A stretch of 64,000 bases of DNA from contig CAWCPN010000002.1 in assembly GCA_963797495.1 (NCBI GenBank), positions 2,345,953 to 2,409,952 on the forward strand. The letters are read 5' to 3'. Below the pieces are notes generated by a model. It did no database searches and had not been told where the DNA came from. It saw only the letters and a list, made by a program, of their open reading frames with translations. Every line of letters begins with the position of its first letter. Within the stretch, counting starts at the first letter, position 1. This DNA is from an uncultured Acidobacteriota bacterium. GTDB taxonomy: Bacteria > Acidobacteriota > Thermoanaerobaculia > UBA5066 > Gp7-AA6. The translations under genes were made by a program, and so were the position numbers. Below are positions 3,855 through 4,070 of the stretch, in pieces.

Positions 3855-4012
3855 CCGTCGCTCGGGCGGCGGTCGGGGCCTGCGCGCTTCGCGCGCACCG
3901 CCCCGCGGCTCGCCCAAAGGGCTCGACCGCGGGGCTGGCCCCTCGCTCCGCCCTCGCTCCCGCGGCGCGAGGCGTCCTCCGCTGCGCTCGCGGAGATTCC
4001 TCCCGCCGCGGC
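3855..4012 (-). repeat. Structured intergenic repeat, copy A
   Basis: Aligns by eye with 21003-21164 (opposite strand) and 52994-53096; multi-stem fold with compensatory changes. Confidence 0.8.
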
Positions 4013-4043
4013 CGGGGAAACAACGAGCGGCTTCGATCCGGCC

Positions 4044-4070
4044 GTAGGGGCGGGCCTCGTGCCCGCCCCT
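4044..4070 (+). repeat. GTAG-type REP hairpin
   Basis: GTAGGGGCGGGC-CTCGT-GCCCGCCCCT; a covariant copy lies at 20939-20964. Confidence 0.75.

Follow-up and report, generated by a model that had tools for sequence, protein, structure and literature searches.

A covarying, REP-like repeat that abuts gene ends in two related families of Acidobacteriota

The window analyzed here, a stretch of 64,000 nucleotides from an uncultured Acidobacteriota bacterium (Thermoanaerobaculia, UBA5066, Gp7-AA6; assembly GCA_963797495.1, contig CAWCPN010000002.1, positions 2,345,953 to 2,409,952), holds two full copies (A and B) and one degenerate or variant relative (C) of a dispersed structured element of approximately 163 nucleotides (nt). 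Its fold is conserved by compensatory base changes, and its 3' end abuts the ends of genes on the opposite strand. This abutment, which was absent from the initial annotation of the window, is the most telling feature of the family. Repeats resembling repetitive extragenic palindromes (REPs) are common, and their movement and preference for gene ends are unsettled. The present family is unusually informative, as its dozens of covarying pairs reveal which strand is read and it meets stop codons and tRNA ends with single-base precision.

The repeat family and its fold

The host assembly (4.13 Mb, 69% G+C, three contigs, 92% complete) carries 31 full copies and 5 partial ones, every one of them on the main contig. 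LepA encoded in the window is 71% identical to its counterparts in Thermoanaerobaculia metagenome-assembled genomes, its best matches with a name. A search of sequencing runs gave five of DNA type, from soil or wetland (shares 0.07 to 0.23), and none of RNA. Searches with blastn, iterated nhmmer, and a covariance model were concordant on this family: in this genome, nhmmer returned 42 matches, 30 of them full length, and the covariance model, R1, returned 39 matches at E ≤ 1, comprising 31 of 155 to 166 nt that scored 88 to 159 bits, 5 partial, and 3 marginal ones. In a sample of the order, the model matched 65 of the 66 genomes of the window's own family (f1), all 5 of a second family (f3), and 1 of the 49 of a third (f2); in a sample of the class, the element was found in 17/17 and 3/3 genomes of the first and second families and in 0/129 elsewhere. 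These tallies take in three unpublished genomes, G047 and G130 of the first family and G030 of the second, without which they become 63/64 and 4/4 in the order sample and 16/16 and 2/2 in the class sample. Element copies number in the tens per genome in two related families of one order, and the matches in the order sample exceed 1,200 at the least, counted among the at most 23 listed per genome.

The initial annotation had proposed a structure-selected family with many copies genome-wide and had suggested a covariance-model search of this genome and its relatives. That search yielded further copies in both and, together with nhmmer and the shuffle control described below, upholds the proposal. 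The expectation that no Rfam family would account for the element also held: with Rfam 15, the whole window at gathering thresholds matched only a tRNA, and copy B at E ≤ 10 gave a best E of 3.2, outside the core. Our literature search found papers on REPs, REP-associated tyrosine transposases (RAYTs), and tyrosine transposases associated with terminal inverted repeats (TIRs), the TIRYTs, but no account of this element; the supplements to PMC3733652 and PMC6006769, which tabulate REP families and Y1 genes, lay outside that search and might name related Acidobacterial repeats.

The borders of the element are sharp. It starts with G-T/C-T-CGCGG and ends with GCGACG, in which, among 46 copies, C-G-A never varies and the bases on either side show at least 90% conservation. 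The core of 155 to 166 nt forms 53 to 56 pairs in eight helices with two branch points. It opens with H1, an irregular hairpin of 51 nt in which an 11-bp GC stem leads through an internal loop to a 6-bp stem, where one G is bulged, and then to a tandem G·A and a 2-bp stem with a GAA triloop at its tip. The linker after H1 pairs with the 3' tail to form a rod, P0, which unites both ends and contains two further tandem G·A motifs, and a three-way junction joins P1, P2 (which runs into a GGUCGAG...CGAGCC tandem-G·A hairpin), and P3, capped by a GNA triloop. In all, the fold contains four conserved tandem sheared G·A motifs in addition to the GNA triloops. A K-turn reading of the GA motifs was ruled out (the bulge has 1 nt versus 3), and UUCG tetraloops on the complementary strand were ruled out by register, the stems giving triloops.

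We tested the hand-drawn structure, which derives from copy B, on 46 sequences. Of the 31 full copies in this genome, 28 were used, and two of three near-identical tandem copies and one 3'-truncated copy were left out; the genus contributed 15 further sequences and the second family 3. Pairing was kept in 92.3% of 2,454 cells, and both sides had changed in 29 of 56 pairs (206 cells). None of 500 shuffles attained any of five measures, and sliding the partners by 1 to 3 columns left 35 to 49% of cells paired. The middle of P0 aligns poorly and is weakly supported, with 76% of cells paired and no double changes. Thus, the conservation by compensatory base changes that had first been noticed between copies A and B is borne out across the family.

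The folding strand is the one written out in the initial annotation (here, the written strand), and four lines of evidence agree on this. They come from a model-made alignment of 66 matches, from which the 48 full-length ones were used and 18 short second-family matches were dropped. Among uncompensated cells, G·T outnumbered A·C (36 versus 14); since C>T (50) and G>A (54) changes are about equally frequent in paired columns, the G·T excess reflects selection, not mutation bias. By a hand tally of the per-pair rows, there were roughly 35 G·A versus 9 C·T cells. Conserved unpaired columns hold a purine in 28/32 cases (G in 18, A in 10, C in 2, T in 2). Last, in energy predictions, the written strand folds more stably than its complement in 47/48 copies with RNA parameters (by a mean of 10.4 kcal/mol) and in 48/48 with DNA parameters (by 4.2 kcal/mol). 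A model and alignment built on the written strand may slightly favor it, and G-rich strands generally gain from wobble pairs; the four lines nevertheless concur. We conclude that the written strand is the one under structural selection.

Most copies in the second family retain the first hairpin and closing rod only, and the tandem-GA hairpin is shifted to the 5' side, a rearrangement which indicates that the element is modular. Tandem arrangements occur at two loci of the window's genome. At G000:C2:1085202-1085722, three near-identical copies lie head to tail with 16- to 18-nt spacers; at G000:C2:497998-498469, a full copy precedes a tandem array of five units that repeat only its last ~60 nt, from the GAGCC of P2 to the GCGACG end.

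Gene-end junctions and filled and empty sites

Gene context was taken from our own crude log-odds caller of open reading frames (ORFs). In this genome, 20 of the 32 distinct loci have the GCGACG end -3 to 8 nt (mostly 1 to 2 nt) from the stop codon of a gene on the opposite strand, compared with a chance level of 1.9% when intergenic positions and strands are drawn at random (p 6e-27). In a set of 86 distinct copies taken from many genomes, a reverse-complement stop lies 0 to 3 nt past CGACG in 52, and exactly at +1 in 40; at control offsets of 10 to 13, such stops follow 3 of the 86 copies. Under a strict test that demands a well-scoring ORF of at least 50 codons, 23/53 copies in relatives pass. 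The consensus of the junction is GCGACG-G/T-T-Y-A, with no signal beyond. Within the window, copy B obeys the stop rule (Table 1), and so does copy C, in which CGACG (53092-53096) is followed by one T and then by CTA (53098-53100), the stop of ORF 53098-54459; copy A is an exception. Stable RNA genes can take the place of the ORF: in the second family, a tRNA or tmRNA 3' end lies on the opposite strand 0 to 4 nt off at 7/25 loci (8 junctions), and one copy in the window's genome is 2 nt from tRNA-Gln. Two second-family copies (L062 and L048) end with GCGACGTGAAATGGCGGGTGGGGCGCGGAGC... and have a common flank in which ARAGORN finds no tRNA; a stable RNA gene of some other kind, encoded on the opposite strand, may have its 3' end there.

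The stops at these junctions are TGA in 23, TAA in 16, and TAG in 13 cases versus 30, 3, and 18 expected from genome-wide use, making TAA about five times commoner at element-adjoining stops than genome-wide (16/52 versus 6%); the copies counted are related, and the expectation comes from our own caller in one genome. Given this TAA excess, the T after GCGACG-G/T apparently belongs to the element or to the joining event, which suggests that the junction base is set by the element. At the site of copy B (B site), the filled copy has TAA and the empty orthologues TAG at the same codon position. Insertion that always splits the stop, between TA and G to give TAA, fits the B site and was rejected, as it fails at one further locus where the filled stop is TGA and the empty one TAG.

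On the 5' side, a co-oriented gene ends 0 to 290 nt upstream at 14/28 loci; a divergent gene start is nearby at 9, a second copy stands head to head at 4, and 1 locus belongs to none of these three classes. Only 2 of the 28 loci lie between divergent genes. Where head-to-head pairs occupy the space between convergent genes, each copy adjoins its own gene, and between genes of the same direction the folded strand is antisense in 9 pairs and sense in 3. In G023, at the B site (L067) and at another locus (L174), the adjoining ORF lacks the junction stop and reads into the complementary strand of the element, for ~30 codons in L067 and apparently through the whole element in L174 (translated by eye).

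Filled and empty sites, which the initial annotation proposed to seek in relatives, were found at the tsaD-lepA spacer that holds copy A, at the B site, and at three further loci. In 23 relatives, the tsaD-lepA spacer is devoid of full copies; two of them retain a ~45-nt 3' remnant that ends GCGACGG at the same spot. Among 16 relatives with both flanks of the B site, one has a copy, two have a copy of opposite orientation beside the other gene's stop, and one is left with a short 3' remnant; the remaining relatives have no copy, and their spacers are as short as 9 nt. The three further loci are likewise filled or empty, and one locus can hold different subfamilies in different species. ORF length is equal at filled and empty sites, which points to insertion at the stop itself.

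There is no sign of target duplication: the longest common flank word averages 3.43 versus 3.27 ± 0.14, and 32/200 controls were as high. Terminal inverted repeats are absent, the 5' end GTTCGCGG being unlike the complement of the 3' end ACCGTCGC. A conserved 5' target was not found, with at most 0.44 bits at any position over 88 distinct 5' flanks, and CATC lies within 12 nt of the 5' end in only 20 of them. CATCCG was considered as a general 5' target or as the neighbor's start codon and was rejected, since it occurs in only 15 to 20 of the 88 flanks and travels with one subfamily.

Other repeats occupy the same spacers in other species of the genus. Long hairpins of tandem 7- to 8-nt units (e.g., GGTCGTAGGTCATAGGTC... 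and its complement) occur in the tsaD-lepA spacer (L021, L023, L026, L028, L030, and L032), at the B site (L073, L075, and L084), and at L177. Inverted-repeat elements with the ends GTCATCCCGAGCGCAGCGAGGGATCC lie in the B-site spacer of three relatives (L070, L072, and L074).

Copies in the window and neighboring palindromes

The strings quoted in the initial annotation for copies A and B, including GGTCGAGC, GCGAGCC, GGTGCG, and the terminal GAGCGACGG, are all in the window, and both copies have, as written there, a c-GAA-g or c-GCA-g hairpin and tandem GA/GA mismatches, with the long hairpin that CGCGGCG/CGCCGCG closes lying ahead of them. Its grouping of three copies in one family stands for A and B as full copies and fails for C as such. 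Copy C scores 18.5 bits with R1 over 52963-53089 (E 9e-4 in a 501-nt search) and was not recovered in the genome-wide nhmmer or covariance-model searches; it retains the GGTCGAG..CGAGCC (tandem-GA) hairpin, the GGTGCG hairpin (P3), and the GCGACG end and is without the first hairpin and the closing stem. The ranges given for A and B are longer than the ~163-nt core and take in an extra 55 to 60 nt on the 5' side, which are a separate palindrome and spacer.

Copy A comprises the first hairpin H1, the closing rod P0, the three-way junction P1/P2/P3, and the GCGACG end at 3856-3860. It lies between a TsaD-like ORF and lepA, on the strand common to all three, and its 3' end adjoins GTTATGAT, which corresponds to a TATCAT-like box found conserved ahead of lepA in a spacer alignment of 23 relatives. 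The coordinates of these and other features are collected in Table 1.

Table 1. Element copies, their parts, and adjoining genes in the window
Feature	Position	Strand	Remarks
Copy A core, 160 nt	3854..4013	-	R1 90.4 bits, E 6.8e-12 genome-wide
Copy A 5' extension	4014..4069	-	33-nt spacer and 23-nt GC palindrome GGGGCGGGC-ACGA-GGCCCGCCCC (4047-4069), a REP-like hairpin of its own
lepA, downstream of copy A	2031..3851	-	Pfam GTP_EFTU, LepA_C
Stop of TsaD-like gene, upstream of copy A	4107..4109	-	ORF 4107-4592, Pfam TsaD E 3.5e-20
Copy B 5' extension	20939..20999	+	Palindrome GGGGCGGCC-ACGA-GGGCCGCCCC (20939-20961) and spacer
Copy B core, 166 nt	21000..21165	+	R1 140.5 bits; structure defined on this copy
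Copy B, H1	21003-21053	+	
Copy B, P0	21054-21071 with 21146-21162	+	
Copy B, P1	21073-21078 with 21139-21144	+	
Copy B, P2 and tandem-GA hairpin	21080-21119	+	
Copy B, P3	21122-21138	+	
Copy B, GCGACG	21158-21163	+	
Stop codon TAA of ORF 21169-22248	21169..21171	-	Five bases past CGACG of copy B
Copy C	52990..53097	+	Degenerate or variant relative; occupies the entire gap between two convergent ORFs

In this genome, the 5' palindrome extension is confined to A and B, 2 of the 33 copies that have a 5' end. The 225-nt long form (palindrome, spacer, and core) recurs elsewhere, with matches to query positions 641-865 in G007, G041, and G003, and the copy A palindrome belongs to a dispersed family of its own (blastn matches to query positions 40-77). 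This second dispersed family consists of 23- to 32-nt GC palindromes, GGGGCGG...CCGCCCC, that follow stop codons, with 22 strict-pattern matches in this genome. In relatives (L012, L013, L019, L068, L071, L081, L168, L174-L176, and L183), palindromes are often GTAG tagged (CGTAGGGGCGG... / ...CCGCCCCTACG) and sometimes form head-to-head pairs. The GGGGCGG...CCGCCCC palindromes look like classical GTAG-type REPs. The sole Rfam match in the window, a tRNA gene at 10991-11072 (+), has no adjoining element copy.

Explanations and comparison with known systems

We tentatively favor, at a little short of an even chance, the reading that the element is a clade-specific, nonautonomous, REP-like repeat whose fold a trans-acting enzyme recognizes in single-stranded DNA (ssDNA), joining the element next to T-Y-A where genes end. 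Selection keeps the element foldable as a single strand, and the putative enzyme, specific for one strand, would cut and join at the GCGACG end, much as Y1 enzymes read REPs and IS200/IS605 ends. Entry into gene-end DNA proceeds without target duplication or inverted ends and sets the 3' end no more than one or two bases from the complement of a stop codon, or from a tRNA or tmRNA 3' end, on the other strand. Once resident, the element may serve, or be tolerated, as a gene-end module, a structured block between neighboring transcription units. We chose a DNA over an RNA reading because the base-precise, stop-skewing junction resembles an insertion footprint and no reverse transcriptase was found for an RNA route.

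Three genes of the Y1_Tnp (HUH) family, encoding 322 to 334 amino acids, are present in the genome outside the window (G000:C2:1290549-1291550, 2009959-2010924, and 2027748-2028737). All three are bounded by perfect or near-perfect inverted repeats of 24 to 28 nt that start with TGGGGTCAGGTCT, and these repeats have ~35 miniature derivatives of 60 to 110 nt, with two ends each, genome-wide. The Y1-gene ends fit the TIR-associated Y1 transposases of Acidobacteria and their GGGGWSAS motif as described in PMC3733652 and PMC6006769. Each Y1-type end carries a small TTCG-loop hairpin, and one lone end of this type lies in the window at ~41069 (minus strand).

Several findings weigh against the favored reading. 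No moving enzyme was found among the families searched (Y1, TnpB, IS110, and reverse transcriptase). The ends of the three Y1 genes are unrelated to the element, and no copy flanks these genes, the nearest lying >25 kb away. Y1 occurs in 56/66 genomes of the first family, 28/49 of the third, and 2/5 of the second versus 65/66, 1/49, and 5/5 for the element, and G019 (two contigs, 97% complete) has at least 19 copies without a Y1 match. TnpB (PF07282) and the IS110 transposase (PF01548) had 0 matches in this 92%-complete genome, with positive controls recovered; reverse transcriptase (PF00078) was not found above the cutoff (best, 16.9 bits), nor was there an Rfam intron match. Orientation is not tied to the replichore (10+/8- versus 9+/5-; Fisher p 0.72, n=32; replichores from GC skew, with the origin near 1.94 Mb and the terminus near 3.94 Mb), a tie that lagging-strand insertion would predict. 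Dispersed copies are at most ~92% alike by blastn, so recent movement is without support. Same-locus copies of different species differ by up to 12 compensated pairs and by 9 to 44% of unpaired positions; this could reflect selection on resident copies, i.e., a host or RNA function, and could equally be explained by one copy replacing another. In addition, the folded strand is the sense strand of the upstream gene at about half of the loci (14/28) and hence quite possibly transcribed, and the gene context rests on a crude caller. The copies may be relics, or their enzyme may fall outside Pfam's Y1 model.

Some more specific partners were considered and dropped. Gene 3' ends priming the copying of element RNA would need a reverse transcriptase gene, of which there is none above the cutoff, and the TnpB omega-RNA and IS110 bridge-RNA ideas lack partner genes. 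The P1 stem GGGGTCAG as a Y1-transposon end was also rejected, since the stem varies by covariation and the likeness is weak. The word GGGGTCAGG occurs 109 times in the genome, and only 6 of these lie inside element matches.

The initial annotation had pointed to an HUH enzyme of the RAYT or IS200 type and to copies flanking its gene as a check. In its full form, this would make the element a REPIN (a REP-based mobile unit) or a palindrome-associated transposable element (PATE), which a resident HUH Y1 transposase would carry into the lagging-strand template by way of a circular ssDNA intermediate. The fold, which is strand-specific and has an imperfect hairpin close to one terminus, the lack of target duplication and inverted ends, and the presence of three Y1 genes would suit such a mechanism; one REP superfamily carries a CGTC tag, of which the invariant terminal GACG here is the complement, and GGGGTCAG in P1 fits the GGGGWSAS motif of TIR-flanked Y1 gene ends. 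The link to HUH enzymes is nevertheless not sustained. The Y1 genes have their own inverted repeats with ~35 miniature copies, none of the three has an element copy beside it, their presence does not track the element, neither a conserved 4- to 5-nt target at the 5' end nor a replichore bias was detected, and the stem carrying the motif-like word varies by covariation. We regard this mechanism as decidedly unlikely.

A function in RNA is the chief alternative, though somewhat unlikely in our view. The written strand would work in cis as a structured RNA, in the role of a transcript-end or insulator module: by ending or protecting RNAs that head for the 3' end of the adjoining gene, whether from convergent read-through or from divergent transcription off the next promoter, it would shield this gene, tRNA, or tmRNA from antisense transcription; the spread of copies would be secondary. 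Tolerated G·U pairs, purine loops, a multibranch architecture, and strong covariation are what such an RNA should show, and the strand asymmetry is larger with RNA than with DNA energies. With a co-oriented gene upstream at 14/28 loci, the strand is probably transcribed, and the head-to-head pairs between convergent genes, each copy against its own gene, fit an insulator. So do the compensated differences among same-locus copies, the retention of the family across an entire bacterial family, and the other hairpin repeats at the same spots in other species. Harder to reconcile are the 5' flanks, which at no more than 0.44 bits per position lack promoter-like conservation and at 9/28 loci face a divergent gene start, and the want of an intrinsic terminator U-tract: none follows GCGACG, and no T run lies past the other end, as judged by reading without a dedicated terminator scan. 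A junction of 0 to 2 nt with a skewed stop also resembles an insertion footprint, not a functional need.

Activity of the complementary strand, in the mRNA or tRNA precursor of the adjoining gene, as a 3' untranslated region terminator, stabilizer, or processing signal, is highly unlikely. That strand does begin 0 to 5 nt past stop codons and tRNA or tmRNA ends in sense orientation, one-directional gene pairs have the written strand antisense in 9 cases versus sense in 3, and REPs are thought to act in this way (PMC3733652). However, its tolerated mismatches would be C·A instead of G·U (36 versus 14), its conserved motifs would be tandem U·C mismatches and its loops pyrimidine, and it is less stable in 47 to 48 of the 48 copies and has no U-tract past the last hairpin. 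Least probable, to the point of being hardly credible, is a multicopy family of independent trans-acting small-RNA genes. Its conserved fold and lack of an Rfam match would be expected of one, but conserved promoters or terminators are missing, copies are wedged between genes with no room for such signals, and sites are filled or empty between close species.

A bolder reading, which we consider unlikely, is that a structure-guided, strand-specific mobile element (or RNA copied from one) homes to gene 3' boundaries as such, in fixed orientation, or that these are dedicated antisense-facing gene-end insulators. Homing would take all three kinds of stop codon and the 3' ends of tRNA and tmRNA as targets, with insertion within a base, and a rewritten last stop base would explain the 5-fold TAA excess. 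If true, this would mean a targeting principle without a described enzyme or a dedicated class of antisense-facing gene-end insulators.

With >1,000 copies across two bacterial families of uncultured soil organisms, and no obvious accompanying transposase, the family makes the questions of ssDNA or RNA and of which enzyme directly testable. The covariance model is ready for annotating such genomes, in which unannotated copies create spurious ORFs and assembly breaks.

Among known systems, the attC sites of integrons lie directly past an ORF stop, fold on the antisense strand, and conserve shape more than sequence. The element likewise follows ORF stops, has an antisense fold, and keeps shape over sequence; unlike attC sites, its copies do not form cassette arrays but are spread across 3.5 Mb, next to housekeeping genes and tRNAs. 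By reading, it lacks the attC core sites RYYYAAC / GTTRRRY; intI was not searched for. The fold of bcr1, a repeat of the Bacillus cereus group, is kept by compensatory changes. Repeats of this type are, like the element, intergenic, ~150 nt long, predicted to fold, and variably present between strains, but they and other miniature inverted-repeat transposable elements (MITEs) have inverted ends and a duplicated target, and the element has neither. PMC3733652 names bcr1 among its background examples. The IS200/IS605-derived PATEs, which move by "peel and paste," share with the element a strand-specific fold, an end-adjacent hairpin, and the lack of inverted ends and target duplication; they differ in having a conserved tetra- or pentanucleotide at the left end, a replication-strand bias, a matching autonomous element, and TnpB.

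The CGTC-tagged REP superfamily includes Neisseria dRS3 and Rickettsia RPE-4/6 and has no known dedicated transposase (Di Nocera et al. 2013, PMC3733652); its members have 8- to 9-bp stems, loops of 4 to 5 nt, and a CCA tail and occur mostly in Alphaproteobacteria. On the sense strand of the gene, our element begins in a similar way, with (C)CGTCGC directly past the stop. It does not have the stem-loop-tail format, however; its GACG lies partly within a tandem G·A helix of the 163-nt fold, and its better-folding strand is the other one.

The closest parallel is with REPs at large, with their composite forms (bacterial interspersed mosaic elements, or BIMEs, and REPINs) and with RAYTs (TnpA-REP). 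Di Nocera 2013 (PMC3733652) places REPs of both tag types no more than 20 bp from the 3' ends of ORFs and notes that the TAG stop often comes from a GTAG REP. The element shares with REPs the character of a dispersed, noncoding, GC-rich folded repeat in tens of copies per genome, vertical persistence in a clade, a place between convergent or same-direction genes tight to ORF 3' ends, sometimes supplying the stop codon, and a conserved terminal tag without target duplication. It departs from them in being four to eight times longer and branched, where REPs are simple imperfect palindromes of 20 to 40 nt, often in inverted pairs; in lacking a GT[AG]G tag at a hairpin foot, GTAG being found only on the separate 23-nt palindromes; and in flanking no Y1 gene. 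Moreover, its gene-touching end is the 3' end of the folded strand, so that the fold is antisense to the adjoining gene. Thus, we conclude that the element is a REP-like variant with helices held by covariation and a base-precise junction, distinct from the members of any described family.

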